A stretch of DNA of 64,000 nucleotides from an uncultured bacterium (GTDB taxonomy: Bacteria; Fermentibacterota; Fermentibacteria; Fermentibacterales; JCC-6). Shown here piece after piece: positions 4,669-64,000 of this stretch. Positions within the stretch are counted from its first letter, which is position 1. The number at the start of each line of letters is the position of its first letter. A program made the translations under genes and the position numbers. The stretch spans positions 666 to 64,665 of the forward strand of contig CAZIPI010000014.1 of the NCBI GenBank assembly GCA_964541235.1, written 5' to 3'. Below the pieces are notes generated by a model, which saw only the letters and a list, made by a program, of their open reading frames with translations, did no database searches and was not told where the DNA came from.

Positions 4669-6573
4669 ATGAGGGAGACCTGGGGAAGCAGACGGGCCTT
4701 CATTCTGGCCGCTATCGGAAGCGCCATAGGGCTCGGGAACATCTGGAGATTTCCGTACGTGGCGTACGCCAACGGGGGAGGCGCCTTCCTGGTGGCCTAC
4801 TTCGCATGCCTCTTCATCGCGGGCATTCCCGTTATGATGCTTGAGTTCGGCCTTGGGCACAGGTACAGGCAGGCGGCTCCGGGGGCTTTCCGAAGCATCA
4901 GGCCCTCGCTGGAGTGGTTCGGATGGATGGCCGCCCTTCTTTCCTTCGTGATCGTGGTGTACTACGCCATAATCATGACATGGTGCGTGAACTACACCTA
5001 CGAGGCCGCAACCCAGGGATGGAAGCAGGAACCGGGTCTTTATGCCGACCCATCCGTGGCCATCGCCCCCACCCTCCTGTCGGACATGGAGGTCCTTACC
5101 CCGGTGCCCGGCGAGCTTGCGGGGTCTCCCTTCGTCTCACCGGTGAGCGGCACTCCCGGTGTCGTGCGATCCGAGCCCACATCAATCGTGATGCACCAGG
5201 GATGCGCCTACGGCTTCCCAACCCGTGCGCAGGCAGAAGCCTTCGCCCGGCAGCCCTGCGTTGACGACCACTGCGTCCTGACCTCCGGAGAGGGCACGGG
5301 AACATCCGTACTCCCCCGGGTGCCGGCCGCGCTTCTGGGCCGACCCTACGTATCCCCTGTTGACGGTTCGTCCGGGGTGGTGATGAACATCTCCACCATC
5401 CTCGTTGCGTACGGGGGGCGTTTGTACGGTTTCGACAGCGTTGACGAGGCAAGCACTTTCATGGGGTCTCCCGGGGACTTCTTCTTCAACCGGTTCCTGG
5501 GCATCACCTCTTCTCCATGGGACATGGGAAGCTTCCGCTGGCCCCTTCTGATCGGCTTCATCATCTCGTGGGTCTGGATAATCGCAAGCATCTGGAAGGG
5601 CACGAAAACGGTGGGCAGGGTTGTTTACTACACCGTGATAATCCCCTGGGTGCTGCTTCTTGTATTCATCATCAGGGGGGTCACCCTGCCGGGGGCAGGC
5701 GCGGGGCTTGCCTACTACCTTACTCCGGAGTGGGGCCGGCTCCTCAGCGGCGACATCTGGCTTGCTGCGCTGACCCAGGTCTTCTTCAGTCTTAGCGTGG
5801 GCTTCGGGGTGATGATCGCCTACGGCAGCTTCCTGCCAAAAAAGGCAAACCTGGCCGGAAGCGCCTTCATCATCGGAATTGCCGACGCCCTGACCGCCTT
5901 CTGCGGAGGGCTGGCCGTTTTCAGCGCCCTGGGTTTCCAGGCGTCCAGGCTGGGGGTGCCCGTGAGCGAAGTGGTGAAATCTGGGCCGGGCCTGGCCTTC
6001 GTGGCGTACCCCCACATCATATCCAGCCTGCCGGGGGCGCCTGTTTTCGGCGTGCTCTTCTTCCTGATGCTTCTTACCCTGGCTGTGGATTCGGCGTTCA
6101 GCCTCGTTGAGGGCGTCACCGCATCCATCAAGGACAAATGGGGGCTCTCACACAGGCGGGTGAACCTGATGGTGGGCGGCGCCGCCTTCCTTCTGGGCCT
6201 TCCCATGCTGTCAGGGGCCGGGCTTCACATCCTCGACATAGTTGACCACTTCATGAACAACATCTCCCTGGCGCTGGTGGTCCTGGGCCAGATCCTCATC
6301 GTCGGCTGGTTCCTGCCTGCGGAGAAGATGAGAACCTACATCAACGCCAACTCCGGGATCCGAACAGGCCTCTGGTGGAACACCAGCGTCCGCTGGATCA
6401 TACCCTTGGGCATGCTGTGGATGCTGGCGTCGGAGATCAGGGCCAGAACCGCGGGCGCATACGGCAGCTTCGAACTGCGGAGCCAGGAGTTCCTTCTGGG
6501 GTGGCTTGTTGTGATGCTCCTGCCGGTGGTGGGAGACCTGCTGGCATCGGGCAAAGGGAGCTGGAAGGACTAG
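4669..6573 (+). CDS. Neurotransmitter:sodium symporter (NSS/SNF) family transporter with a ~170-aa insertion after TM3
   Basis: Hallmark N-terminus WGSRRAFILAAIGSAIGLGNIWRFPY. Multi-TM throughout. An internal duplicated module lies at aa 145-196 and 217-268. Confidence 0.9.
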   Translation: MRETWGSRRAFILAAIGSAIGLGNIWRFPYVAYANGGGAFLVAYFACLFIAGIPVMMLEFGLGHRYRQAAPGAFRSIRPSLEWFGWMAALLSFVIVVYYAIIMTWCVNYTYEAATQGWKQEPGLYADPSVAIAPTLLSDMEVLTPVPGELAGSPFVSPVSGTPGVVRSEPTSIVMHQGCAYGFPTRAQAEAFARQPCVDDHCVLTSGEGTGTSVLPRVPAALLGRPYVSPVDGSSGVVMNISTILVAYGGRLYGFDSVDEASTFMGSPGDFFFNRFLGITSSPWDMGSFRWPLLIGFIISWVWIIASIWKGTKTVGRVVYYTVIIPWVLLLVFIIRGVTLPGAGAGLAYYLTPEWGRLLSGDIWLAALTQVFFSLSVGFGVMIAYGSFLPKKANLAGSAFIIGIADALTAFCGGLAVFSALGFQASRLGVPVSEVVKSGPGLAFVAYPHIISSLPGAPVFGVLFFLMLLTLAVDSAFSLVEGVTASIKDKWGLSHRRVNLMVGGAAFLLGLPMLSGAGLHILDIVDHFMNNISLALVVLGQILIVGWFLPAEKMRTYINANSGIRTGLWWNTSVRWIIPLGMLWMLASEIRARTAGAYGSFELRSQEFLLGWLVVMLLPVVGDLLASGKGSWKD

Positions 6574-40569: not shown

Positions 40570-42128
40570 CTGGGCTCTTCGGCCTCCATCTTCTTCCTGA
40601 TAAGCTCCTGATGGCCCATGGTGAGAAGGTTGAACACCATCCAGTAAAGGTTCATGCCGGCCGCGAACTTCATGAAGATGTAGCTCATGAACACCGGCAT
40701 CAGGTACATCATGCCCTTCTGCTGCTGCATCGAGGCCGAACTCATCTTCTGCTGGATGATCATGAACGCGGCGCTCACAAGCGCCATGAGCCCTATCCCG
40801 TGAAGACCGAGGATGGGGGCCTGGAACGGGATGAGTATCTCCGGCCTTGACAGGTCGGTCATCCACAGCACGAAGGGAGCGCCCCTGAGTTCCACTGCGT
40901 TCCCCAGAACCCTGTACATGGCGAAGAACACCGGCATCTGCAGAAGCATGGGAAGACACCCTCCGAGAGGGTTGGCGCCGGACTCCCTGTAGAGCTTCTG
41001 CATTGCCTGCTGCTGTTTCTGCGGGTCGGCCGCGTATTTCTGCTGTATCTCCTTTATGGCCGGGGAAAGCTTCTGCATCTTCTGCATGGCCACGAAGCTC
41101 TTCTTGGTGAGGGGCATCATAAGGAGCTTGAGTGTGAAGGCCAGAACGATTATCCTGAGGCCCCAGTTGCCAATGAACGAGAGAACGCGGTCGAGATACA
41201 GGAAGATCAGCTGAGCAAGCTGTCTGACCACGGGAAAGCCGAAGTCCACCATTTTGCCGGTGTCGCTTCCCAGGCCGGTCAGGACCGTGTAGCTCACGGG
41301 TCCGGCGTAAACAGTGACGTTCTCCGCTTCCAGTGAAACTTCGGGGGAGCTTCCGGCACCAGGTGCGACAAATCCGCTGACCCTCTCCCGCGACTGCGGA
41401 AGAAGCACGATGCAGAAGTACCTTGATGAGGCGGCGACCCACCTGCTGTTGCCGGTTCCCTCAAGCGCATCGATGGCGGTTGCTTTCCTGCGTGTCATCT
41501 TGTTGGTGTACCAGCAGGCGGAATAATACTGCCTGAGGTCGGCCCCGGCTTCCGTGACCGGTATCGCCCCGGACTGCACGGTCATCCTGCCGGAAAGCCC
41601 TTCCTCGGATACGTCGAAGGCGTAGGATCCGCTTCTGAACCTGAAGGTGCGGGTGGCGCTCCCGGCGGTCATCACCACTTCGGCATCTCCGGCGACCACC
41701 ACGGTGTCCGGGCTGTTGCAGTGGAAGGCCACCGGTTCGCCCCTGGAGTTCATCGCCATGAGCCATGGTTCCCTGGCAAGGTTCACCGCTTCCCCGGAGG
41801 CATCCCCTGTAAGATCGGGGTAGCTGTTCAGCGACCAGCGGGTGACGCCCCCGCCGAAGGTTGTCAGACGGGCGTCCACGAGGACCGATTCGCCGTCCAT
41901 TATCAACACGGTTATTGCTCGTGGGGATGTCTGCTCTTCATGGAAGTCCACCGGTGGCTCAGGCTCGGGCTGGTCAGGGGCAAGGAGTTCGGGGGCCGTT
42001 TCCCGCACCTCTCCCGTCTGCGCTGGAGGGGTGGTCGTCCTGGGGCCGGCCAGGAACCAGCTCAAGGCCAGGACCGCCATCATGAGCGCGGCTGCTAGAA
42101 GCATTCGTGACTGGTCACTGATCGCCAT
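40566..42128 (-). CDS. yidC: Membrane protein insertase YidC
   Basis: N-terminal TM, a large periplasmic domain, and the conserved C-terminal 5-TM core (GGCLPMLLQMPVFFA...). Confidence 0.9.
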   Translation of the reverse strand: MAISDQSRMLLAAALMMAVLALSWFLAGPRTTTPPAQTGEVRETAPELLAPDQPEPEPPVDFHEEQTSPRAITVLIMDGESVLVDARLTTFGGGVTRWSLNSYPDLTGDASGEAVNLAREPWLMAMNSRGEPVAFHCNSPDTVVVAGDAEVVMTAGSATRTFRFRSGSYAFDVSEEGLSGRMTVQSGAIPVTEAGADLRQYYSACWYTNKMTRRKATAIDALEGTGNSRWVAASSRYFCIVLLPQSRERVSGFVAPGAGSSPEVSLEAENVTVYAGPVSYTVLTGLGSDTGKMVDFGFPVVRQLAQLIFLYLDRVLSFIGNWGLRIIVLAFTLKLLMMPLTKKSFVAMQKMQKLSPAIKEIQQKYAADPQKQQQAMQKLYRESGANPLGGCLPMLLQMPVFFAMYRVLGNAVELRGAPFVLWMTDLSRPEILIPFQAPILGLHGIGLMALVSAAFMIIQQKMSSASMQQQKGMMYLMPVFMSYIFMKFAAGMNLYWMVFNLLTMGHQELIRKKMEAEEPR

Positions 42129-42348
42129 CGTTCCCTTCCTCCGGTACGGGGTCGTATCCTCCCCGGTTCCATGGGTTGCACCTGAGTATCCTCTTCAGTG
42201 CCAGTCCCGATCCCCTGGCAACGCCGAACCTTTCCACCGCTGTTCTGGCGTAGCTGCTGCATGACGGCGTGAAGCGGCATGACCTTGGCAGAAGAGGGGA
42301 CAGGAATCTCCTGTATCCGTCTATCAGGAAAAGGACCATGCCCTTCAT
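42115..42348 (-). CDS. yidD: Membrane protein insertion efficiency factor YidD
   Basis: YRRFLSPLLPRSCRFTPSCSSYA. Confidence 0.9.
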   Translation of the reverse strand: MKGMVLFLIDGYRRFLSPLLPRSCRFTPSCSSYARTAVERFGVARGSGLALKRILRCNPWNRGGYDPVPEEGNDGDQ

Positions 42349-42722
42349 CTCCTGGCTTCCGTAACCAGCTTGTTGAAGTCATCGCGGAGCGCTGGCCATC
42401 CGATCTCCCTGAGCTTCACCAGCGGCGTCACTACGGCGTCGAATCCCCGGCCTTCACGGTCCTCGCGGGCCAGCTGCCTGAGCCTTCTTCTGAACAGGTT
42501 CCTCTCCACGGCATTCCCTGTTCTTCTCGATACGGAAAACCCCAGGCGTATAACGCCCAGGGTGTTTCTGCAGTGTCTCGCCTTTACTGTTCCGCCGGTG
42601 AATCGGTTCCCCGACTTGAAAAGGCGGATGAACTCCGGAGTTCTCTTCAGGGAAAAACACGGGGTTCCGGTTCTGTCAGCCCTAGGGCACCAGTCTTTTG
42701 CGGCCCTTCCTTCTTCTGGCAT
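42345..42722 (-). CDS. rnpA: RNase P protein component
   Basis: Sits between rpmH and yidD. Basic, with an EFIRLFKSG...G.S.SRR..NAV.RN..RR pattern. The start is uncertain because the ORF start overlaps rpmH by 41 nt. Confidence 0.75.
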
Positions 42723-42816
42723 TCAGAACCTTCCTGCCGCCCCGGGTGGCCATTCTGGCCCTGAACCCATGCTTCCTTACCCTTGAGATCCTGCTGGGCT
42801 GATAGGTTCTCTTCAT
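42682..42816 (-). CDS. rpmH: 50S ribosomal protein L34 (absent from the ORF track because it is under 60 aa)
   Basis: Manual translation gives [44 protein letters not shown]. Confidence 0.9.
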
Positions 42817-43095
42817 GACCCGTTCCTTCTTGACTAAACCGGCGGCTGGTTGCCCCGGGAAACAAAAAATGCCTATTCCAATGGGAAGCGGAATTTTACT
42901 AATTCACGCGGGGCGTGTCAAGCTCTTTTCCGCCCTTGCCAACGGAAAAGAAATCAACATGTTCTGGTCTGTATCGAGCGGCCCGGATTTTCATTCAATT
43001 GCTGTGCAAGTGTTTACTACGGCCGGAGGTGTGTTGAAAACTATGTTGATCATTGCTGACCCTGTTGTGTGCATTCGTCTTACGGCTCTTCTCAG

Positions 43096-45792: not shown

Positions 45793-50483
<4,691 letters not shown>

Positions 50484-50487
<4 letters not shown>

Positions 50488-53400
50488 CCAGCAAGGACGC
50501 TCTGAAGGCCAGGCTTGCAACATGGTTGTCGGTGCATGGCGAAGACAGGGCGCTGCCTCCCCCGGTATCGGTACCGGCTCTTCCCGCGGTGCGCCCGGAG
50601 GTCCTGAACGCCACTCCTGCCGCCGCCGCCGCGCTGGGAGGCCTTCCGCTGTTCAAGCCCTGGAGGAGGGCGCTGCCCGTGGCCGCGTCTCTGCTCACGG
50701 GCATGGAAGCAGGCTCCGGCGGCGCCATCTTCAAGAAGCTCCAGACCCTGAGATCCCCGCCGGCGTCCGCCGAGCTGGCCCTTGAGTGGTTTTCCGCAAT
50801 TCACCTCCTTCCCCACAACCTTTGGGACCTGGGGATGGAGGGGTTCTTTCAGCTCGCCGGGACACTGTCCGAGAACGGCGGTCCCTCCGACGAACCCGGT
50901 CTCGGGAGCGCTCTCGCAAGCTGGTACAGGGTTCTGAGAAGCTGCGGCGACGGCAACCTGGGCGAAGACGCCGCGTCCTTCTGCCTTGATCTTGCAGGTT
51001 TCTGGCCGGGCCACTTCGCATACCTCTGCGACAGGCTCTCCTCGGGTGGTGAAGAAGTTCATGAGGCACTGAAGAAAGCCGCGGCCTTCAAGAATGTTTC
51101 CGAGAACAACCGGGCCGTGCTTCTGGATTTCGCCGCCGACCTGGGCTGGCTCTACCGCGGTGACGAGTTCGCCCCCCTGTGGGAGATAGTGGCCAGAAGG
51201 GGAATGCCCATTTACAGAAGGATCGCCGAGGGCATGGCCCCCATGGGCTCCATCAGGTTCTACTGCGGCGCCATGAGAGCCCTTCAGAAGAAACGGGGCA
51301 TTGACGAGCTTCTCTCCGAGGAGAGGGTTCACAGGGCCATGGTCCTGTTCAGGACCGACGAGGTGGATGTGGTTGCATCCGTGCTGAAATCCAGCCCGGT
51401 AGCTTGCAGCTACCTTGACTCGCAGATGGAGATAGATCTGGCCATCGACCTCTTCTCGATACGCACCTCGGGGACCGAGAACCCTTCCTCCCTGGGGGAG
51501 GACTTCATAGAAATGGTGGACTCAGCCCAGAAAGGCATCACATACCAGGGGCTCGTCAAGTTCCTTTCCGTGATGCAGGGAAGGGTCGAGGGGGAACCCC
51601 TGGCATTCGTGAGCGGCTACCTGACCGACGCGGGTGAGAAGAGCTTCTACACCGCAGTGGACGCCATGAGGATGTACCGGATCACCGAGGTCGTCTTCTC
51701 GGTGGGAAGGACCGCTGACCGCCGCAGCCTCAGGACAGTGTTCCGGGCCCTTGACGGCGCGCCGTCGGGAAGAAGGGGGCTGGCACTGCTTGAAAGGGCC
51801 TTGTCCCGCAGGGGGAGCCACCTCCCGCACCTCGCCGCAGTTGCATCACTGCTGGTCAGGGCCGCCCCCGACGATGATGCCGCAGCATACCTGAACAGGG
51901 CCCGGGGCATGGCGGACGTGTTCTCACTGCTCACGCCCGTTGACAGGGGCAAGCTGTCGTCGGGGCTGGCTCCGGCATGGATGGAGAAGCTGCTGGACGC
52001 TGAACCGGAAGCCGAGAAGACGGTCATCCAGTTCCTCGGCAGGGTTGAGGACCCCTCCAGGAGGCTCAGGTTCCTTGACATGGTGGTGGCGCCGCTGATG
52101 CAGGAGGTCAGCGCCTCCGACCCGCTCTTCAGTGACTGCCTTGCCTTCGCGGTCACGGGCTACAATTCGGCGCCTGAGCAGGACAGGCTTCGTGAGGCCG
52201 AGAACCTGACCCTTCAGAGGGTTTTCAGGGCAGGGGGCAGGGTCGCCGCCCTGGATGTTCTGATGCAGGACTTCCTGGCAATGCCCGGATTGTCGAGGCA
52301 TCGCTCCGAAGAACTGCTTGCCGGGATAAGGGCCATCTGCGACAGGTTCAGCAGACAGGCCGTCTGGCAGGAGGGCTTCGACAGGATCTTCTCCAACTTC
52401 CTGGAAGAGGGCATTAGAAGGATACTGAACGCGTTCATGGAGGTGCCCGATTCACTGGATACCGTTGACAGCGGGTTCATAGCCCGGCTGGCGGACAGGC
52501 TGATGCCGGTGAGACATGCAGGCGCCAGCGTTTCCACTGGCGCCGGGCGTTCCGCGATGGCCTTCTTCACCCAGGTCCTTCCTGAAAGCGTGTTCTTCTA
52601 CCACAGGTGCCTGGATCAGCTGGCGGGCTTCCTCGAGAAGGCCATAGACATGGCCCAGAGAAGCATCGGGGGCATCCCGGCGGGCGAGGAGTTCCTCTCC
52701 CACCTGGCCGGCGAGATCCAGGAGAGCCGTGCACTCGAGTTCTCCACAAGCCTTGATGCGTGGCTCAGGGGCAACCCGGCCCCCACCGCCGAGACCGACA
52801 ATTTCAACCCCGAGGAGATACTGGGTTCGTGGTACGGGATCCATGAAGCCCGGGAAGTGCCGAGGAAACGGCTGGGCGGAGTCGCTGCACTGGTGACCTC
52901 ATCGCAGACCCGTCGGGAGGAACTGCTGAAGCTCTGCTCCGTGCTCAGCGCGGGTCTCGCTTCGACGGGGGTTCCGGGGGGGGATCAGCTTGATTTCCAT
53001 TGCGACAGACAGGCCCTGATGAAGCTGAAGGCAACCCTGGGCGATAGACGGGACCTGCTGGACCTCTTCATATCCATCAGAAGGGGCAGGGTGCAGCCTG
53101 GAGACGAAAAGGCGGTCGCCGAGCTTTCCATGGCTGCGGAGGATACCGGCGGCGATCCGGTCCACGCCTGGGCACTCAGGAACCTGCCGCCCCTACTCAA
53201 CTGCGCCCTGATGATGATGCTGGCGGAGCCCGCCGACCCTGAAAAGGCACTGGCCATTGCTGCCTCCATAGTGGAAGTGGTTGATTTCATGGGGTCCGAA
53301 GGCGCTTCGGAGCTTCTTCTGATGGTTGCCGGATGTCTTTCCGCCGCGGCGTTCCCCGGTCAGGCGCCGGACCTTCTTGAAAGGCAGCTCTTCGGACCGA

Positions 53401-54038
53401 TGTGGAAAACAAGGGCACTTGACCGTATCGAGCTCTTCCTGGCCGGCCGTTCACAGCGCAGGCGTCTTCTCGAGCTTCTTCTGGAAAGGCTCCGTCTTGA
53501 ATCCGGCACCCCCGAAAGGGTTTCTTTCATCAGGCGTTACGGAACCATGTTCATCTGCGTCTGGGGGTACGTTCTGGAGAAGCCGTTCCCGGACACCGAG
53601 AAGATCATGACCGAGGTGCTGTCCGGTTCCTGGGTTTTCACCGATGGAGGGAACCAGCCCCAGTACCCGGCGGCGCTCCAGGAGATCCACGACCTGGTGA
53701 GGGACGAGGTCAGGAAGCGCAAACACGCCTTCGGGGTGGTATCCATGGAGGAGGCCCGTGAGATCAGCGCCGACATGCGCAGGAAGTACAGGGACAACGC
53801 CGATTCGGTTGCGATCCTTCTGCGATGGACGGTTGACCCCGCAAGAGAGGACCTGCTAAGGCTTCTTGAAGAGAACGAGACCCTGCTCCAGGCCGTGAGC
53901 ACCGACCACGAGCTTCTTCACCTTCTGGACATGTTCGGCGGCAACAAGGAGATCATGGGAAGGGCCGCCGGACTCGCCGCCGACCCTGCGAAGCTCAAGA
54001 AGAGCCTCTCCGACTTCTCGAGGAGAAGAGATGACTGA
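50484..54038 (+). CDS. Large (1184 aa) hypothetical protein with no recognisable motif
   Basis: Uninterrupted ORF. ATG 50484 overlaps the gyrA stop (ATGA) and its own end overlaps the next start. Composition is rich in Leu, Ala, Arg and Glu, suggesting an all-alpha fold. Confidence 0.7.
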
Positions 54039-55069: not shown

Positions 55070-55417
55070 ATGGCAAGGAGCAATGAGGGTTTCACCATAG
55101 CCGTGATACCCCATTCCGCCCATGGCAGGAGACGGGAGCTTCGCGTTACCGGAGGCAGCGTACCCCTTTTTCATGCCGCGTTGGTGGTGGTGATCCTTGT
55201 GATAGCCGCATCGGTTTACATGTTCGCCTCCGGGGTGTTGACCCAGGGCAGGGTGGAGGCCCTGAACCGGCGTATCGCAGGCCTGCAGGACTCTCTGACC
55301 GCCGCCGCCGACCTGGGCACGCGATTGAGTGCGATTGAAGAACAGCTGGAGGAGATAAGAGCCGCCAGAAGGGTGATAGAGAACATTGCCACTCAGGGAG
55401 CCCCTTCGGTGGATTAG
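55070..55417 (+). CDS. Small single-TM coiled-coil protein
   Basis: One TM (LFHAALVVVILVIAASVYMF) followed by a heptad-like Leu/Ala/Glu region. It sits directly upstream of the bactofilin gene. Confidence 0.5.
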   Translation: MARSNEGFTIAVIPHSAHGRRRELRVTGGSVPLFHAALVVVILVIAASVYMFASGVLTQGRVEALNRRIAGLQDSLTAAADLGTRLSAIEEQLEEIRAARRVIENIATQGAPSVD

Positions 55418-55432
55418 GCGTAAGGAGACAAT

Positions 55433-55792
55433 GTGGGCAGAGAAGATACGGGAAATGCCATCAACTCCATCATCGGGGCCGGCAGTACATTCACCGGGGT
55501 TCTGAACGTACAGGGGGGCCTGAGGGTGGACGGTCTGGTGGATGGCGAAGTTGGCGTTTCAGCAACGCTGACCGTGGGGCACGAAGGAAGGATCAAGGGC
55601 GAGATAACGGTGGCCCAGGCGGTTATCGGCGGGACCATCAACGGCACCATTAGGGCCGAGAACCAGCTTGAGCTTCAGAACGGCTCCCGTGTCGAGGGCG
55701 ATATCTACACGCGGAGCCTGGTGATAGAGGAGGGTGTTTTCTTCCAGGGCCACTGCAGCATGAGCGGCAAGGACAGTCCGCAGAAGAGCTGA
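55433..55792 (+). CDS. Bactofilin (DUF583) cytoskeletal protein
   Basis: Repetitive beta-helix pattern: GAGSTFTGVLNVQGGLRVDGLVDGEV...IKGEITVAQAVIGGTINGTI...VEGDIYTRSLVIEEGVFFQG. Confidence 0.85.
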   Translation: MGREDTGNAINSIIGAGSTFTGVLNVQGGLRVDGLVDGEVGVSATLTVGHEGRIKGEITVAQAVIGGTINGTIRAENQLELQNGSRVEGDIYTRSLVIEEGVFFQGHCSMSGKDSPQKS

Positions 55793-55939: not shown

Positions 55940-56254
55940 TTGAGCGAAAGCCTTGAGACGCTTCTCGCGGCGGAAGCCCGGGCGGCGGAGCTTTTGGAGA
56001 GGGCCGCCAGAGAGGCCCAGGGGGAAAGGGCTTCGATCCCCGAGGCACTGAGTGAGCTCGAGACCAGGTACGAGAGCGCCCTGGCGGCCGCAGAAGAGAG
56101 GGAGACCTCCGGGATCGTTCAGGAGGTAGGCACATACCATGAACAGCTGCGACAGATGAGGATGGCGCTGGAGGAGGAGCTTAAGGATAAGTCCAGGGAG
56201 CTGGATTCCGAGGCGTTCCGGCTTCTCAGGGCGAGAATGCTCAGGGGCGGTTGA
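55940..56254 (+). CDS. Small coiled-coil V-type ATPase stalk subunit (G/H-like, tentative)
   Basis: First ORF of the operon, with a TTG start. Rich in Ala, Glu and Arg and predicted helical. Confidence 0.45.
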   Translation: MSESLETLLAAEARAAELLERAAREAQGERASIPEALSELETRYESALAAAEERETSGIVQEVGTYHEQLRQMRMALEEELKDKSRELDSEAFRLLRARMLRGG

Positions 56255-56255
56255 G

Positions 56256-58238
56256 ATGGCCCTGGAGACCGTGGTCAAGACCGAGATACTCTGCCACAGG
56301 GCCCATCTGGACCAAGTGCTGAGGCTCCTTGAGAAGTCCGGCATGGTGCACCTGGCCGATGCGGACCCGGCGCTTTTTCAGGGCCTCTCCAGGATGGACA
56401 CCGGAAGCATCGAGGAGTTGCGTGAGCTGAGGGCAGAGCTGGAGAGGGCCATGCAGTTCCTGACCGGCTTCCAGCCCGGGAATGGCAGACCCGAGCTGGT
56501 GGTCACCCGCGAGGCCCTTGAGAAAGCCCTGGGCGACACATCAGCAAGAAGCGTCTCCAGGGAGGCATCGCTTCTCTCGGCGCAGTTCCAGGAAACAGAG
56601 CAGCAGATCCGCGAGATCAACGCCGGAAGGGCTCTGGCAGAGAAATGGGACTTCCTGCCCTGTCGTTTCGACATGGTTGGAAGGAAGGGCGATTTTGCGG
56701 TTTTCGCCGGCACCCTTCCCGGTTCAGCGGTGTTGGAGCCCCTTCTTCAAAATGAGTTCCCGCTCACCCGGCTGTTCGTTCACCCCGCAGACATGGTGAC
56801 GGCTGTATCCCACTCATCGGAAGCGAAGGCGTTCGGCGAGAGGATCGCCTCACTGGGTTACATTCCCGGTGATTTCGCCGGCCTGGCCGCCACCCCCGCC
56901 GAGGAGACGGCAAGGCTGGACGCGATGTTGGAAACAGCAGAGAAAAGGATGGCCGAATGCCGTGAACGGGCTGGCGAACTCTCCAGAAGGGTCCCGGAAC
57001 TCCGGATGATGTTCGACGCCGCCGGCCTTCTCATAACCAGACGGGAAGCAGCGTCCTCCGGTGTTTCCTCTGCGAGCGTTCTGGTCCTTCATGCCTGGAT
57101 GCGGAAAGCCGATGTTCCGGTGCTGAAGGCCGAGCTCGAGAAAGTGGCCGCAGCCGGAATAGAGATAGTGGAACCCCTGGAGGGCGAGACCCCGCCGGTG
57201 TTCCTAACCGAGCACGCCACCGTTGACCCCTACCTGCTCCTTACCGACATGTTCGGAAGACCGGCAGGCTCCGACCCCGACCCGACCCCCCTTTTCGCCC
57301 CCTTCTATGCGCTGTTCTTCGGCATCTGCATTGGCGACGCCGGCTACGGTGCGGCCCTGGTGCTTGGCAGCCTTCTGGGATGGTGGCTCACCGGGAAAAG
57401 GGGAGGGAACACCAGGCTTTTCAGGCTCATCTTCCAGGGGGGGCTTGCCAGCATCATTACCGGAGTGTTCCTGGGCGGATGGTTCGGAATGGAGTTCCAC
57501 TCCCTCCCGGGTTTTCTCCAGGAGCCGGCCATGCTCCTCAACGGCCTTGTTCCCGGGTACTCTCCGGGCAAGCCGGGTTTCTCCGTCTCCAACCAGTTCC
57601 TTTACCTGACACTGGGGCTGGGGCTTCTGCAGCTGTCCTGGGGAGTTCTCGTCAATCTTCCGAAAAGGCTTCGTCAGGGTGAGGGGTTCGCGGCGGTGCT
57701 GGAGCAGGGCGGATGGCTCCTTGCCATAGCCGGCCTGTTCCCCTGGCTTTTCAACCACTACCTTCTCAACGGAGCCCTTTACGACATCAGCGGCCCCGCT
57801 GACCGCTTCTTCCTTCTCATGCTTGCAGCCGGCGCTCTGCTGATCTTCGTCATGGGCGGCAGGTCCGCTGGAAGCATCGGGGGCAAGGTGGGGCTGGGAG
57901 CCTACGCCACATACGGGATCGTAAACCTTCTCGGTGATGTCCTGAGCTACTCCAGGCTTTTCGCGCTGGCCCTCTCAAGCGCCATCATTGCCCAGGTCAT
58001 AAACGAGATAGCGGGTATGCTGGCCGGAAGCATGGCCGGCATAGGGATCGTGCTCGCCATTGTGGTGCTTCTTGCCGGGCATGCGTTCAACCTGGCCATG
58101 GCGGTCCTTTCCGGCTTCATCCATACCGCCAGGCTCCAGTTCGTTGAGTTCTTCGGGAAGTTCTACGACGGCACGGGCGTTCCATTCTCGCCTCTCCGCT
58201 TCGAGCCGCGTTTCGTCCGTATCGGTGAATCGAGATGA
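56256..58238 (+). CDS. atpI: V-type ATP synthase subunit I (a-type stator)
   Basis: N-terminal soluble hairpin domain plus a C-terminal multi-TM domain with the conserved Arg region (LSYSRLFALAL). Confidence 0.85.
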   Translation: MALETVVKTEILCHRAHLDQVLRLLEKSGMVHLADADPALFQGLSRMDTGSIEELRELRAELERAMQFLTGFQPGNGRPELVVTREALEKALGDTSARSVSREASLLSAQFQETEQQIREINAGRALAEKWDFLPCRFDMVGRKGDFAVFAGTLPGSAVLEPLLQNEFPLTRLFVHPADMVTAVSHSSEAKAFGERIASLGYIPGDFAGLAATPAEETARLDAMLETAEKRMAECRERAGELSRRVPELRMMFDAAGLLITRREAASSGVSSASVLVLHAWMRKADVPVLKAELEKVAAAGIEIVEPLEGETPPVFLTEHATVDPYLLLTDMFGRPAGSDPDPTPLFAPFYALFFGICIGDAGYGAALVLGSLLGWWLTGKRGGNTRLFRLIFQGGLASIITGVFLGGWFGMEFHSLPGFLQEPAMLLNGLVPGYSPGKPGFSVSNQFLYLTLGLGLLQLSWGVLVNLPKRLRQGEGFAAVLEQGGWLLAIAGLFPWLFNHYLLNGALYDISGPADRFFLLMLAAGALLIFVMGGRSAGSIGGKVGLGAYATYGIVNLLGDVLSYSRLFALALSSAIIAQVINEIAGMLAGSMAGIGIVLAIVVLLAGHAFNLAMAVLSGFIHTARLQFVEFFGKFYDGTGVPFSPLRFEPRFVRIGESR

Positions 58239-58723
58239 TCGCTACCATTCCACAGGGAGGACAACAAGTGACAGTCTATCTCATCGCCTATCTCGGCGCC
58301 GGCATTGCCTGCGCCCTCGCGGGGATCGGCAGCTCCATCGGCGTGGGTATCGCGGCCCAGGCCAGCACCGGGGTCATGAGCGTTGACCCGAAGAAGTTCG
58401 GCAAGCTCCTTCTGCTCTCGGCCCTGCCGGGCACCCAGGGCATCTACGGGTTCGTGATTGCCTTCCTGCTCCTTCAGAAGATCGCTGGCTTCACGGCCCT
58501 CGAGGCATCCGACGCGTGGAAGGTGTTCGCGGCCGGCGTTCCGGTGGCCCTTGCAGGTCTTCTTTCCGGAATATTCCAGGGCAAGGTCTGCGCTTCAGGC
58601 GCCATGATGACCGCCAAACAGCCCGGCGAATCCGGAAAGGCACTGATCCTCGCGGTGTTCGTGGAGTTCTACGCCATCCTGGGCTTCCTCGTCAGCTTCC
58701 TCATGCTCGGGCAGATCGGTTGA
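58235..58723 (+). CDS. atpK: V-type ATP synthase proteolipid subunit K (duplicated 4-TM)
   Basis: LPGTQGIYGFVIAFLL, GIFQGKV, VFVEFYAILGF. An alternative start is GTG 58268, after GGGAGGA. Confidence 0.85.
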   Translation: MIATIPQGGQQVTVYLIAYLGAGIACALAGIGSSIGVGIAAQASTGVMSVDPKKFGKLLLLSALPGTQGIYGFVIAFLLLQKIAGFTALEASDAWKVFAAGVPVALAGLLSGIFQGKVCASGAMMTAKQPGESGKALILAVFVEFYAILGFLVSFLMLGQIG

Positions 58724-58728
58724 GCGGA

Positions 58729-59319
58729 ATGTCCCTCGAGACCATAAGACAGAAGATAATCCAGGATGCGGAAGCGGAAGGCGAGAGGATCCTCTCCCAG
58801 GCCAGGCACGAGAAGAAGGCCGCCCTTGAGGAGGCCAGGGCCAGGCTCACCGCCAGGGCCGAGAAGGACAAGGTCAGGCTTCTGGAAAGCCTGAAGCAGA
58901 GGAAGGCCCGGCTTCGTGAGCAAGCCCTCAGGGCGGAGGAGAGAAGTCTTCTGAACACGCGCAGAAGGCTGATAGACGAAGCTCTTCACAAGGCCGTTGC
59001 AAGCCTGGCATCCTCTCCTGATTACGCTTCCATAATCGAATCCCTCCTGGCCGGCTGCGATTTCACCGGGGAAGTTGAGGTGATCATCTCGGCCGCCGAT
59101 GCCGGGAGGATCAACCAGCAGTTCCTTGACAGGCACTCCTCAGACATGGTCAGGTTCCGTCTCTCCGATCAGCGTCACAATGCCAGGGGAGGGCTTATTC
59201 TCAGGTCCGGCAGAGTGAGCAGGAACGCCACGCTGGACATGATGGCCTCTCTGGTGCACGAAGAGATGGTGATGGAGCTATCCCGTATGCTTCCCCTGAA
59301 GAGGATGGAGAACCTGTGA
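58729..59319 (+). CDS. atpE: V-type ATP synthase subunit E
   Basis: MSLETIRQKIIQDAEAEGERILSQARHEKK is the typical subunit E N-terminal helix. ATG 58729 lies within the longer ORF 58516-59319. Confidence 0.8.
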   Translation: MSLETIRQKIIQDAEAEGERILSQARHEKKAALEEARARLTARAEKDKVRLLESLKQRKARLREQALRAEERSLLNTRRRLIDEALHKAVASLASSPDYASIIESLLAGCDFTGEVEVIISAADAGRINQQFLDRHSSDMVRFRLSDQRHNARGGLILRSGRVSRNATLDMMASLVHEEMVMELSRMLPLKRMENL

Positions 59320-60281
59320 GTTCGTCCTGGGAGTATGCGGCGGGCAGGATCAGCGCCCTTGAGGTCACTCTTCTCTCCCCCAGGCACTGGGGCCAGATAA
59401 TCGGCTCCGCCGGCGTGGAAGAACTTCTGAAGGTACTGGGCGAAACCTGGTACGGGCGCCTCATCCACGGAGACAGCCTTGAAGAAGCGCTCCCCGGAGC
59501 GCTTTCCGCGGCGGAGGACGAGCTCCTGGAGCTTGGTCCGGACCAAAGGCTGGCAAGGGCGATCCTTCTTCGCAGGGACGTGAGGAACGCCAGGTACACA
59601 TGGAAGGACATGGCCTCCGGAGGAGATGGAGCGGTTCCCCTGGAAAGGGACGGTACCCTCCCGGCGCAGCTCTTCGCCAGGGCCTGGAACGATCCGGCTT
59701 CAGCCGATGAGCTTCCCAAGGAATTCCGCGCCGCCATGGGCGGCATACAGGAGGTATCCCAGGGAGGGTCCCTCAGGGTTGACCTTCTGATGGACCAGCT
59801 GGCCGCTGATATTGAACGGGTTCACCTGGGGAGCCTTGATTCCGGGCTCGGATCGTTCGTGGCAGCCAGGCTCGAGTTGCGGAACTTCCTCACCGCCGGC
59901 AGGCTGGGGATCGAAGGTATCGCAGGCGGTCAGTTGGGGGGGTGGCTGTTCCCGGGGGGTTTGCACTCCATTGAGGAAGTGATGGAAGCATGCAGAAAGG
60001 GAAGGCTCCCCGATCTTCTGGCGGAGACCGCCGGATTCGAAACTGCGGCAGCGGCCCTGAAGGAAGGGCTGGAAGGCGGCTCATTCCTGGCTTTCCAAAG
60101 GGAGAGCGACAGAATTCTGCTTGAAACGGTCTCCAGTCTGGGGAAGCGGTCCGCTGGACCCGGGCTTCTGGCATCGTACGTGCTGGGTCGGGAGATGGAG
60201 ACTGTCCACCTGAACCTCGTGGCCGCCGCGAAAAGGGCGGAAATGAATACGGCGAAGCTGCAGATGCGGCTTCCCAGGTGA
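59316..60281 (+). CDS. atpC: V-type ATP synthase subunit C (d-type)
   Basis: Operon position, a size of about 320 aa, and a GTG start overlapping the atpE stop. Confidence 0.75.
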   Translation: MSSSWEYAAGRISALEVTLLSPRHWGQIIGSAGVEELLKVLGETWYGRLIHGDSLEEALPGALSAAEDELLELGPDQRLARAILLRRDVRNARYTWKDMASGGDGAVPLERDGTLPAQLFARAWNDPASADELPKEFRAAMGGIQEVSQGGSLRVDLLMDQLAADIERVHLGSLDSGLGSFVAARLELRNFLTAGRLGIEGIAGGQLGGWLFPGGLHSIEEVMEACRKGRLPDLLAETAGFETAAAALKEGLEGGSFLAFQRESDRILLETVSSLGKRSAGPGLLASYVLGREMETVHLNLVAAAKRAEMNTAKLQMRLPR

Positions 60282-60291
60282 AGGAGATTCG

Positions 60292-60618
60292 ATGACCGAA
60301 GGGCGCACGGCATTCATAGGTGACGCCGACTCGGTGCTTGGATTCAGGGCCCTGGGGGTGGAGACCTACACGCCCGGCGACCGGGAAGGCGCCCGGAAGA
60401 CCTTTCAGCGTCTTGTGAAAGAGAGGGTCTCGGTGATTATGCTCACCGAGGACATGCTGGAGAAGCTCGAAGACATGGTGAACGACACGCTCGGCCTGCC
60501 GGTACCGGCAGTGGTGGTTCTGCCCGGGGTTTCCGGAAGCCGCGGCCGGGGCGAGGATGCCATAAGAACACTGATCATCAAAGCCGTTGGAGTAGATCTG
60601 ATGAGCGAGGATGAATAG
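60292..60618 (+). CDS. atpF: V-type ATP synthase subunit F
   Basis: [18 protein letters not shown]. Size and operon position also fit. Confidence 0.8.
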
Positions 60619-60632
60619 CCGGAGGAAGCCGA

Positions 60633-62402
60633 ATGCTGCAGGGAAGGATTGACAAGATAGCCGGGCCCCTGGTGGTGGCCACTGGAATGACCGAGGCCAG
60701 GATGTACGATGTTGTGTATGTCTCCGACTATCGGCTGATCGGCGAGATCATCGAGCTGAAGGGTGACAGGGCCAGCATCCAGGTTTACGAGGAAACGGCG
60801 GGGCTCAAACCCGGAGACCCTGTTTACGAAACGGGCCTTCCGCTTTCCGTAGAGCTTGGCCCGGGGCTTCTCACCTCCATCTACGACGGTATTCAGCGTC
60901 CTCTCGACAAGGTGAGGGAGCAGGCGGGGGACTGGATCGGCAGGGGAATAAACATTCCCGGCCTCGACCATCAGAGGAAGTGGCCCTTCACCCCCCTGAT
61001 AAGCCCCGGAACGTCCACCCATGGCGGGGAATTCATCGGCAGCGTAGAGGAGACGGAACTCATCACTCACCGGGTCATGGTCCCGCCGGATACCCGCGGT
61101 GAGGTGACATGGGTCGCCGATGCGGGTGAATACACCATAGACGAACCGGTGGCGAAGCTCAAGACCTCCGACGGTTCCGTTCTCGAACTTCCCATGCTTC
61201 AGAAGTGGCCGGTGAGAAAGCCGAGGCCCTTCGCTACCAAGCTGGCGCCCAACGAACCCCTCATAACCGGCCAGAGGGTTGTGGACGCCTTCTTCCCTGT
61301 GGGGAAGGGCGGAACGGCATGCGTTCCCGGCCCCTTCGGCAGCGGCAAGACTGTCATCCAGCACCAGCTGGCGAAATGGGCCGATTCCGAGGTGGTGGTC
61401 TACGTAGGGTGCGGGGAACGCGGCAACGAGATGACAGACGTGCTCCAGGAGTTTCCGGAGCTCGAGGATCCCAAGAGCGGAAAACCCCTGATCCTGAAGA
61501 CGGTTCTGGTGGCCAACACCTCGAACATGCCCGTCGCCGCCAGGGAAGCCAGCGTCTATACAGGTGTAACCATCGCCGAGTACTTCAGGGACATGGGGTA
61601 TTCGGTGGCCCTCATGGCTGACTCCACAAGCCGCTGGGCCGAAGCCATGAGGGAGATGAGCGGCAGGCTGGAGGAGATGCCCGGCGAGGAAGGCTACCCG
61701 GCGTACCTTGGAACCCGCATCGCCGAGTTCTACGAGAGGGCCGGCAAGGTGGAGTGCCTGGGCGGGGACGACCGGACGGGAGCGCTCACCGTCGTAGGCG
61801 CGGTGAGTCCCGCGGGGGGCGACCTGTCCGACCCTGTGGTGCAGGCGACCCTGAGGGTGGTGAAGGTGTTCTGGAGCCTGCAGGCCAACCTGGCCTACAT
61901 GCGCCATTTCCCGGCCATAGGGTGGCTGGACAGCTACTCGCTCTACATCAGGAACCTAAGGGACTACTACGACGAAAGCCTGGGGCAGGACTGGGTGAAA
62001 ATGGTCTCCAGGGCCATGGCCCTTCTGCAGGAGGAGGCGAACCTGCAGGAGATAGCCAGGCTGGTGGGAGCCGAGTCGCTCTCGCCTGAGGACCAGCTGG
62101 TGCTCTTCACCAGCCGTTCGCTCAGAGAGGATTTCCTTCATCAGAACGCTTTCCACCCTGTGGACACCTACGCTTCCATACGGAAACAGAAGGCCATGCT
62201 GGAAACCATCATGCACACCCACGACGCGATGGGCCGCGCCCTGAAGGCCGGAGTGGCTCCCAGGGACCTCTTCGCCTTTCACAACAGGGAGAAGATCTCG
62301 GGCATGCGCTACATCCCCGAGGAGCATATCCCGGCCATCACGGAACTCAAGGACATTATCACCGGCGAACTTGACTCCATGGTCGAGAAAGCCCGACTCT
62401 AA
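60633..62402 (+). CDS. atpA: V-type ATP synthase catalytic subunit A
   Basis: Walker [10 protein letters not shown]. Full-length family match. Confidence 0.95.
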
Positions 62403-62416
62403 CCGGAGGTGACGAC

Positions 62417-63805
62417 TTGATCAAGGAATACACCACAACCGTTGAGATCTCCGGCCCGCTGATGCTTGTGGACGGAGTCTCTGATGTGAGCTTCGAGGAG
62501 CTGGTGGAGATCGAACTTCCCTCGGGCGAGATCCGGCACGGCAAGGTCCTCGAGGTTGACTCGCACAAGGCTCTGGTCCAGCTTTTCGAGGGCTCCAGCG
62601 GCACCGACCTTGACCGGTGCCGGGTTCGCTTCCTGGGAAAGGGAGTCGAGCTGGGTGTCAGCATCGAGATGCTCGGAAGGGTGTTCGACGGACAGGGAAG
62701 ACCCCGCCCCCCCTTCGATACCGCTCCCCCCATCGTTCCCGAGAAGATGGTGAACATCAACGGCGCCCCGATCAACCCCTTCGCCAGGGACTACCCTGCC
62801 GAGTTCATACAGACCGGGTTCAGCAGTATCGACGGGATTAACACCCTCGTCAGGGGGCAGAAACTCCCCGTCTTCAGCGCCAACGGCCTTCCGCACGGCG
62901 AAGTAGCGGCCCAGATCGCACGCCAGGCAAGGGTGCTCGGGAAGGGGGAGAACTTCGCCGTGGTCTTCGCCGCCATGGGGATCACCTTCGAGGAGGCGGA
63001 CTACTTCATTCGCGATTTCAAGGCCACCGGCGCCATGGACCGGGCCGTTGTCTTCCTGAACCTGGCCGACGACCCGGCCATCGAGAGGATAGCAACCCCA
63101 AGGATGGCCCTGACAGCCGCCGAATACCTGGCGTACGAGAAGGACATGCACATCCTGGTGATCCTCACCGACATGACCAACTACTGCGATGCCCTGCGGG
63201 AGATCAGCGCTGCCCGCAAGGAGGTTCCCGGAAGAAGGGGATATCCGGGCTATCTCTACACCGACCTTGCCTCGATCTACGAGAGGGCAGGCCGGATCAA
63301 GGGAAGGAAGGGGTCCATCACCCAGATACCCATCCTGACCATGCCCGAGGATGACAAGACCCACCCCATCCCCGACCTCACCGGCTATATCACCGAGGGG
63401 CAGCTCATCCTCAACCGCGAACTTCACAAGAAGGGCATCTACCCGCCGATGGACGTCATGGAATCCCTTTCCAGGCTCAAGGACAAGGGCATCGGCAGGA
63501 ACAAGACAAGGGAGGACCACTCGGACCTCTTCAACCAGCTGATGGCGGCCTATTCTGCGGGAAAGCAGGCGCGCGAGCTGTCCGTCATCCTGGGGGTCGC
63601 CGCCCTGAGCGCGCTCGACAGGCATTTCCTGGAGTTCGCCGAGGAGTTCGAGAAAAGGTACATCAGCCAGGAGGACCACGAGGACAGGGGCATAGAGGAT
63701 ACGCTCAACCTGGGATGGGAGCTTCTGAAGCACCTTCCAAGGGAGGAAATGAAGCGCATCCGTCCCGAGTACCTCGACCGCTACTGGCCAGTGGACAAGG
63801 ACTGA
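62417..63805 (+). CDS. atpB: V-type ATP synthase subunit B
   Basis: Full-length family match ([22 protein letters not shown]). TTG start after GGAGGTG. Confidence 0.95.
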
Positions 63806-63806
63806 C

Positions 63807-64000
63807 ATGGCTCTGCAGGTCCGAGCAACAAGAATGGAGCTGCTTCAGCTGAAGCGCCGCGTGAAGCTTGCCCGCAGGGGCCACAAGCTTCTCAAGGACA
63901 AGCTGGACGAGCTTATGCGGCAGTTCAAGATACTGATAGCAGACTACGAGGGAGCCAGGGCAAACCTGGAAAAGGAACTTCAAGGCGCATACTCGCGGTT
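63807..64000 (+). CDS. atpD: V-type ATP synthase subunit D (N-terminal part, runs off the window)
   Basis: Manual translation gives [40 protein letters not shown]... It is absent from the ORF track because there is no stop inside the window. Confidence 0.85.

Follow-up and report, generated by a model that had tools for sequence, protein, structure and literature searches.

We analyzed a 64,000-nucleotide (nt) window (the whole stretch of DNA examined here) from an uncultured bacterium of the phylum Fermentibacterota (GCA_964541235.1, contig CAZIPI010000014.1, positions 666 to 64,665). Directly after gyrA, in the operon that also carries dciA and gyrB, lies a long open reading frame (ORF) whose product belongs to no described family. 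The open frame runs from 50463 to 54038 on the forward strand, and translation from the ATG at 50484 gives a protein of 1184 amino acids (aa) with a mass of 130 kDa and an isoelectric point (pI) of 5.5. Overlapping junctions are found throughout this operon: 4 nt at dciA/gyrB, 8 nt at gyrB/gyrA, 4 nt at gyrA/ORF, and 8 nt between the ORF and the downstream gene for an asparaginase-family amidohydrolase (ansA). A first-pass annotation of the window had reported the length of the ORF, its ATGA overlap with gyrA, and the overlap of its end (54038) with the ansA start (54031), and we confirmed all three from the sequence. It had also placed the ORF in a dnaA-dnaN-gyrB-gyrA block, which is present, but it had missed dciA, which lies between dnaN and gyrB. 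The arrangement is best explained by a single polycistronic message on which the Fermentibacterota ORF would be carried with DciA, GyrB, GyrA, and the amidohydrolase.

We compared the junctions of the ORF with those of its relatives. The ATGA junction and an N-terminus of the form M-T-x-K were kept in all seven species-level relatives, which supports a start at the ATG (50484) over one at the GTG (50463). In most other Fermentibacterota lineages gyrA and the ORF likewise overlap or abut (ATGA, TAATG, GTGA, or a gap of ≤10 nt), and in the deepest lineages they are separated by 60 to 220 nt. At most loci that have ansA, the ORF and ansA overlap or are separated by no more than about 30 nt.

We found that the ORF has the composition and the substitution pattern of a protein-coding gene. 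GC content at the three codon positions was 0.64, 0.46, and 0.78, and third-position GC in gyrA and gyrB was 0.80. The ratio of nonsynonymous to synonymous substitution rates (dN/dS) of the ORF was 0.11 to 0.17 against the seven species-level relatives and 0.07 to 0.10 among closer pairs; for gyrA it was 0.03 to 0.11 in the same genome pairs. Chance would not come near to producing an open frame of 1184 codons that is under purifying selection and has dozens of orthologues, and we concluded that the ORF is a real gene under strong purifying selection. A 375-aa antisense frame (50205-51332, reverse strand) spans the end of gyrA and the start of the ORF. We judged it to be a high-GC shadow frame because the forward frame has the third-position GC given above, codon bias, and conserved orthologues. 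Separately, in three draft contigs, L039 (LQAI01000013.1), L027 (LQAJ01000015.1), and L036, translation of the ORF was interrupted by in-frame stops; in L039 the gyrA frame is broken as well, and the longest upstream frame there is 436 aa. Errors of assembly or frameshifts seem a likelier source of these stops than pseudogene formation.

Table 1. Features of the gyrase operon and of the ORF in the window (coordinates are window positions)
Feature	Coordinates	Strand	Description
dciA, 103 aa	45793..46104	+	Pfam PF05258, E 3e-14; between dnaN and gyrB
gyrB	46101..48041	+	4-nt overlap with dciA; 8-nt overlap with gyrA
gyrA	48034..50487	+	Pfam DNA_topoisoIV, E 7e-159, plus six DNA_gyraseA_C blades
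ATGA start/stop overlap, ORF and gyrA	50484..50487	+	ORF ATG shares bases 50485-50486 with the gyrA TGA (50485-50487)
ORF	50484..54038	+	Predicted soluble all-alpha protein of a family without prior description
N-terminal third, about residues 1-319	50484..51440	+	Specific to Fermentibacterota; unaligned to outgroups (hhalign)
Family core, about residues 320-1184	51441..54035	+	Common to P0031 and P0034
Conserved central segment, residues 527-640	52062..52403	+	Second conservation peak
C-terminal helical domain, residues 1081-1184	53724..54035	+	Most conserved part of the family
Motif beginning with S, residues 1095-1106	53766..53801	+	Invariant in Fermentibacterota
8-nt overlap, ORF and asparaginase-family gene	54031..54038	+	ORF stop TGA at 54036-54038; downstream ATG at 54031
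Asparaginase-family amidohydrolase, 324 aa	54031..55005	+	Pfam Asparaginase and Asparaginase_C; downstream neighbor of the ORF

We searched for relatives of the ORF protein at several levels of sensitivity. A word-indexed protein search recovered 11 clusters with 66 to 100% identity, one of them named Candidatus Fermentibacteraceae. Using a HMMER profile built from those close sequences, we searched 1.84 billion representatives and obtained 24 matches, which included ten full-length proteins of 1173 to 1209 aa with 23 to 35% identity. Across Fermentibacterota the length of the orthologues stays between 1173 and 1222 aa while identity drops to 23%. Clusters that contain members carry the names Ca. 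Fermentibacteria, Ca. Sabulitectum, and "FCB group bacterium," and the database name of every family member is "hypothetical protein." Anaerobic digesters are a habitat in which Ca. Fermentibacter is abundant (PMC5030696). A scan of GTDB genomes gave 7 loci, all in Fermentibacteria/Hyd24-12 metagenome-assembled genomes, and a metagenome scan gave 34 further loci. The earlier proposal of a lineage-specific protein was supported. Besides the Fermentibacterota members, the family has two outgroup homologues: P0031 (1475 aa) and P0034 (1380 aa, from Ca. Coatesbacteria), both of which were first matched through the C-terminal domain only. P0031 and P0034 aligned with each other over >600 residues (BLASTP E 1e-73). 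When the outgroup alignment was compared with that of the Fermentibacterota family (hhalign, A5 against A4, a non-circular profile-profile comparison), the two matched with a probability of 99.7% and an E value of 1.8e-26 over 851 columns, covering only residues 320 to 1192. We therefore divided the protein into a core shared by the whole family and an N-terminal third that is lineage specific (Table 1).

The distribution outside Fermentibacterota is a lower bound, because the sole exhaustive search used a narrow profile. When alignments A2 and A4 were used in word-indexed searches, nothing beyond the query or its close relatives came back, and even the distant members of the alignments themselves were missed, and the metagenome scan with outgroup alignment A4 gave no match. 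Two short matches, P0026 and P0030, were considered as new architectures and rejected, as they are fragments on low-coverage contigs. A tblastn search with the family found nothing in 72,556 plasmid and 50,697 phage records. The papers that we found on Fermentibacteria gyrase, on genes downstream of gyrA, and on bacterial GatDE do not mention the ORF protein, nor does the supplement to the transcriptome study of Sabulitectum (PMC5763382).

No method that we used connected the ORF protein to a known family. Pfam and NCBIfam contained no match for it and no credible match for 18 members at E≤1; the isolated trace of SMC_hinge (E 0.016) in 1 of the 18 was judged to be noise. PHROGs gave no match, PADLOC at E≤0.1 gave only a noise-level Cmr5 hit (E 0.041) in P0013, and no PDB sequence profile fell below E=2. 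The protein is rich in Leu (13%), Ala (11.9%), Arg (8.6%), and Glu (7.3%) and also in Gly. Its peak 19-residue Kyte-Doolittle window is 1.48, which indicates no transmembrane segment. A motif scan did not find Walker A, Walker B, or CxxC motifs. A lone HExxH (HELLH at 1142-1146) raised the possibility of a zinc metalloprotease, which we rejected: the motif is not conserved, and orthologues have Q, S, T, or R in place of H1142 and H1146. Similarly, we rejected beta-clamp binding through LPLF at residues 54 to 57, which becomes LAVS, LPVA, LDIS, or ISTV in Sabulitectum-type lineages. An anti-phage defense or mobile-element protein was also rejected, given the lack of a credible match in PADLOC or PHROGs and of any match in the plasmid and phage records.

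The predicted fold is equally unfamiliar. With a shallow alignment, AlphaFold gave a mean predicted local distance difference test score (pLDDT) of 49; with a 34-sequence alignment that included distant members, pLDDT rose to 84, with a predicted TM score (pTM) of 0.50. The model contains about 60 helices, the longest of about 30 residues, and only traces of strand. Its confidence dips at about residues 130-140, 590-610, 678-683, and 1097-1105, which suggests several helical domains. The model and the composition are best explained by a soluble, cytoplasmic, acidic, all-alpha protein. Foldseek against PDB returned nothing at E≤0.001; the best hits were TAL effectors (TM scores 0.10 to 0.12) and dynein fragments. 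TM scores in a viral structure library were ≤0.16. Local resemblance to the designed helical repeats DHR10, DHR8, and DHR76 was generic, and the matches spanned ≤163 of the 1184 residues. Self-BLAST gave the identity match only, and off-diagonal self-hhalign probabilities were ≤0.5%, so internal repeats were not found.

These results bear on several statements of the first-pass annotation. Its description of an orphan holds for every method used, and the absence of Walker, metal-binding, and transmembrane motifs was borne out. Its suggestion of a large alpha-solenoid or scaffold stands in part: the model is all-alpha and scaffold-like, but a solenoid is not established, as no sequence repeats were found and the local similarity to designed helical repeats is generic. 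We concluded that the family has no detectable relative of known function or fold and, as far as these tools can see, is new in both sequence and fold.

Conservation is concentrated in two regions of the core. It peaks at residues 1081 to 1140, within the C-terminal domain, the part through which the hidden Markov model recovered P0031 and P0034. The only polar residues that are invariant across the whole family are R529, Y560, E573, and R586 in the center and D1118 in the C-terminal domain; R570 and R582 are invariant within Fermentibacterota only. Nonsynonymous divergence is lowest at codons 501 to 600 (windowed pN, 0.074). The motif at residues 1095 to 1106 lies in a low-confidence loop of the model (pLDDT <50 at 1097-1105), and neither outgroup protein conserves it. 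In an alignment of residues 1 to 110, the N-terminal third opens with a conserved helix, after which comes a linker rich in Pro. By family median, all segments of the protein are acidic, and the pI of the whole protein is 5.0 to 5.8 in all intact members. Direct DNA binding is therefore unlikely, and basic protein surfaces become plausible targets.

Next to the ORF, the amidohydrolase gene had been called a type I asparaginase, which we could not establish. The protein scored below every NCBIfam cutoff: 154.6 against 314.3 for type II, 131.5 against 260.5 for type I, and 122.5 against 310 for GatD. Its catalytic motifs (TGGT, HGTDT, and VTKT) are intact. This AnsA-like protein stands at about the same distance from type I as from type II and GatD, and it may represent a distinct subfamily.

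We then mapped about 45 loci by tblastn. The order gyrB-gyrA-ORF-ansA-115-aa protein-bactofilin-V-ATPase was near invariant, and the block from dnaA to V-ATPase remained collinear as identity of the ORF went from 77% to 25% and that of GyrA from 87% to 59%. Linkage to gyrA in relatives had been set beforehand as a test, and the ORF directly follows gyrA in all of these loci whose contigs extend that far upstream. The loci L013-L015 and L042, which represent separate lineages and keep a full-length ORF, have no ansA; here the ORF is followed directly by a small membrane protein and bactofilin.

Outside the phylum the linkage was kept in one case and lost in the other. In L019, P0031 is the next gene after gyrA in the same orientation, and the gene upstream of gyrA is prfB, not gyrB. 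Downstream of P0031 lie overlapping DUF1257 and DUF2997 genes and genes for a 764-aa TPR-like protein and a PatA_N protein; ansA does not adjoin P0031. The 201-nt spacer between gyrA and P0031 contains a strong intrinsic terminator at 4885-4960 (dG -28.8 kcal/mol, z -3.4), with a GC-rich interrupted stem (13 pairs in the minimum free energy fold) and a U-run. In Coatesbacteria, for which the evidence is a single genome (GCA_016927185.1) with two contigs that carry the same protein (L020 and L021), P0034 is not near gyrA and begins 3 nt after a 442-aa gatD (L020, 8669-9997). GatD is an asparaginase-family glutaminase, and the Coatesbacteria protein, with GatD_N and asparaginase domains, clears the equivalog threshold for a bona fide GatD (NF003217, 514 bits; cutoff, 310). 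No GatE- or GatB-like gene was found within 10 kb of this gatD. Outside the phylum, then, gyrA recurs once, in the same order and not operonic, and the asparaginase family recurs once, as a different paralogue on the other side and operonic; neither outgroup has bactofilin or V-ATPase nearby. The Coatesbacteria gatD is itself preceded by a gene for an 887-aa protein with a GlnD-like nucleotidyltransferase region, to which the ORF family shows no homology.

Taken together, the neighborhoods make gyrase and an asparaginase-type enzyme about equally good candidates for a partner. As a mechanism, we tentatively prefer one in which the ORF protein would be a nonenzymatic all-alpha platform that acts as a protein-binding scaffold or regulator inside the origin-proximal gyrase module, a possibility that we hold well short of even confidence. 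Such a protein might, for example, bind to the C-terminal domain of GyrA, which is basic and wraps DNA, or it might link gyrase to some other component of the cell. We prefer gyrase because no feature is more constant across the phylum than the coupling to gyrA and because adjacency to gyrA survives in L019, though the gyrB-gyrA linkage does not. A binding platform fits better than an enzyme or a DNA binder because the protein is all-alpha, large, and acidic, with few invariant polar residues and no cofactor or nucleotide motif. Contact with gyrase, whether physical or functional, and the direction of any effect are inferred; binding of an acidic surface to the basic GyrA C-terminal domain would be plausible on the same footing.

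Several observations weigh against a gyrase scaffold. Since the block is fixed across the phylum, adjacency within the phylum says little about function, and adjacency to gyrA is there no more specific than adjacency to ansA or bactofilin. Because overlaps run throughout the operon, the amidohydrolase included, they indicate coexpression and not a function shared with gyrase. The first-pass proposal, a gyrase-associated factor or something merely cotranscribed, was suitably cautious: the gyrA overlap is conserved in most lineages, but it does not show a shared function. In L019, the terminator and spacer make cotranscription with gyrA unlikely, and the adjacency may be leftover synteny. In Coatesbacteria, no gyrA lies within 10 kb of P0034, which is instead operonic with GatD. 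To our knowledge, no known gyrase partner resembles the ORF protein. A distance-based coevolution test (mirror-tree with partial correlation of pairwise distances for the ORF against GyrA, GyrB, AnsA, bactofilin, and V-ATPase subunit I) gave no help; it had no power, since even the GyrA-GyrB positive control reached a partial r of only 0.1.

The constancy of the block agrees well with the view that the ORF encodes an unrelated housekeeping protein in a fixed origin-proximal operon, for example, an envelope or cytoskeleton protein working with the bactofilin module or a proteostasis protein. Its neighbors would then be a mere product of extreme synteny conservation and of gene compaction in small genomes. 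This is a serious possibility, to which we give somewhat less than an even chance, and it is about as likely as either specific partner model, or more so. Collinearity of the block in about 45 loci, even with the ORF at 25% identity, shows that synteny here is fixed whatever the genes do; genes of the operon as a rule overlap or abut; the two outgroup contexts disagree; and in the loci that lack ansA the ORF stands directly before the small membrane protein and bactofilin. The same outgroups also count against it, as gyrA (L019) and an asparaginase-family gene (L020) each recur beside a homologue, which is unlikely by pure chance, and bactofilin and V-ATPase are absent near both homologues. 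It is the asparaginase-family gene that raises the next possibility, that the ORF protein is the partner of the AnsA-like enzyme (GatD in Coatesbacteria) and scaffolds, regulates, or localizes an ammonia-releasing activity, with gyrA adjacency incidental. The asparaginase family is the sole neighbor that is operonic in two lineages with different gene orders and different paralogues: the ORF precedes the AnsA-like gene in Fermentibacterota, with the close junctions described above, and follows a bona fide gatD in Coatesbacteria. At one or two asparaginase-family genes per genome, we estimate the chance of such an adjacency in the single Coatesbacteria case at about 0.1 to 0.3%. The AnsA-like protein of the window, which keeps its catalytic motifs and fits no curated subfamily, could have a specialized role. 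We nevertheless consider this partnership rather doubtful. The Coatesbacteria case comes from one genome; P0031 in L019 has no ansA beside it; at least two separate Fermentibacterota lineages lack ansA at the locus although their ORF is full length; and no member has a detectable GatE/GatB-like or catalytic acceptor domain. For this last reason, the ORF family cannot replace GatE as an amidotransferase.

A combination of the two partner models is also conceivable, in which the ORF protein would be an accessory subunit that couples gyrase to an asparaginase/GatD-type amidohydrolase, or otherwise regulates gyrase, and would so link chromosome supercoiling to nitrogen or amino acid status in Fermentibacterota and nearby candidate phyla. 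Such coupling would explain why gyrA and an asparaginase-family gene each recur beside homologues outside the phylum; we regard it as unlikely. We give slightly less credence still to a cryptic enzyme or nucleic acid binder with an active site that current profiles cannot recognize. The five residues that are invariant across the family and the motif MRRKYRDNA, a flexible-loop sequence under strict conservation in Fermentibacterota, are what such a protein might be expected to have. However, the outgroup homologues do not conserve this basic motif, no part of the protein forms a basic domain, the fold searches matched no enzyme, and binding platforms, more typically than enzymes, are all-alpha and have few invariant polar residues.

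We compared the ORF protein with known systems that share some of its properties. Its resemblance to HEAT/ARM/TPR solenoids, designed repeats, and TAL effector repeats is generic and does not amount to family membership: the protein has no detectable sequence repeats, no Pfam repeat family was found at E≤1 in the 18 members, and the matches cover ≤163 of the 1184 residues or give the low TM scores noted above. The gyrase of bacteria is commonly regarded as an A2B2 enzyme sufficient on its own, with known modulators that are small and accessory. The modulators GyrI/SbmC, YacG, MfpA/Qnr, MurI, CcdB/ParE, and YejK have no sequence or fold similarity to the ORF protein and are 5 to 20 times smaller; what they would share with it is the hypothetical role of a nontopoisomerase that acts on gyrase. 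The DNA mimics MfpA and Qnr are acidic, as is the ORF protein. These modulators are not generally known to be encoded by a gene that is translationally coupled to gyrA. In the case of GatE, the partner in the archaeal GatDE Glu-tRNA(Gln) amidotransferase, the position of P0034 directly after gatD would be possible for a partner subunit, but the ORF family lacks GatB_N and GatB_Yqey/YqeY domains in every member, is all-alpha, and is twice the size of GatE, and it is thus not a GatE orthologue. Like SMC/MukB condensins, the ORF protein is large, origin proximal, and coexpressed with replication and topology genes; unlike them, it has no Walker A/B motifs, long coiled coil, or SMC_N or hinge domain, and it is acidic throughout.

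If gyrase is the target of the ORF protein, a gyrase partner of this size would be unprecedented and would offer a new way into chromosome-topology control in uncultured FCB-related bacteria. If it is instead the partner of an asparaginase or GatD, it would define a new amidohydrolase complex and might explain why a bacterial lineage has a GatD of the archaeal type although a gatE was not found in the surrounding 10 kb. Candidate phyla have many conserved proteins of unknown function, and in this case a link to function comes from gene order alone. A family with no Pfam or NCBIfam model and no solved or recognizable fold that nonetheless gives a confident AlphaFold model is a concrete target for structural and pulldown work.

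Other features of the window were observed alongside the ORF. The slot between dnaN and gyrB holds recF in many bacteria; in all Fermentibacterota loci examined, the DciA gene is kept there. The divergent intergenic region at 42128-43069, between the yidC/rnpA side (reverse strand) and dnaA (forward strand), is the likely location of oriC, and it contains an 11-of-12 sigma-70-like promoter match at 42921-42893 (minus). Downstream of ansA, a gene at 55070-55417 (+) encodes the 115-aa protein, which has one predicted transmembrane helix and a C-terminal coiled-coil-like segment, and it is followed by a bactofilin gene at 55433-55792 (+; Pfam E 5e-27). Bactofilin is always preceded by the 115-aa gene, and throughout the phylum the two genes stand between the gyrase and V-ATPase operons; the 115-aa protein could be a membrane anchor for bactofilin. 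The V-type ATPase operon (55940-64000, +) begins with a gene for a 104-aa protein without a Pfam match, followed by subunit I (56256-58238) and then E-like, C/AC39, A, and B subunits. The synteny from dnaA to this operon is unusually fixed.

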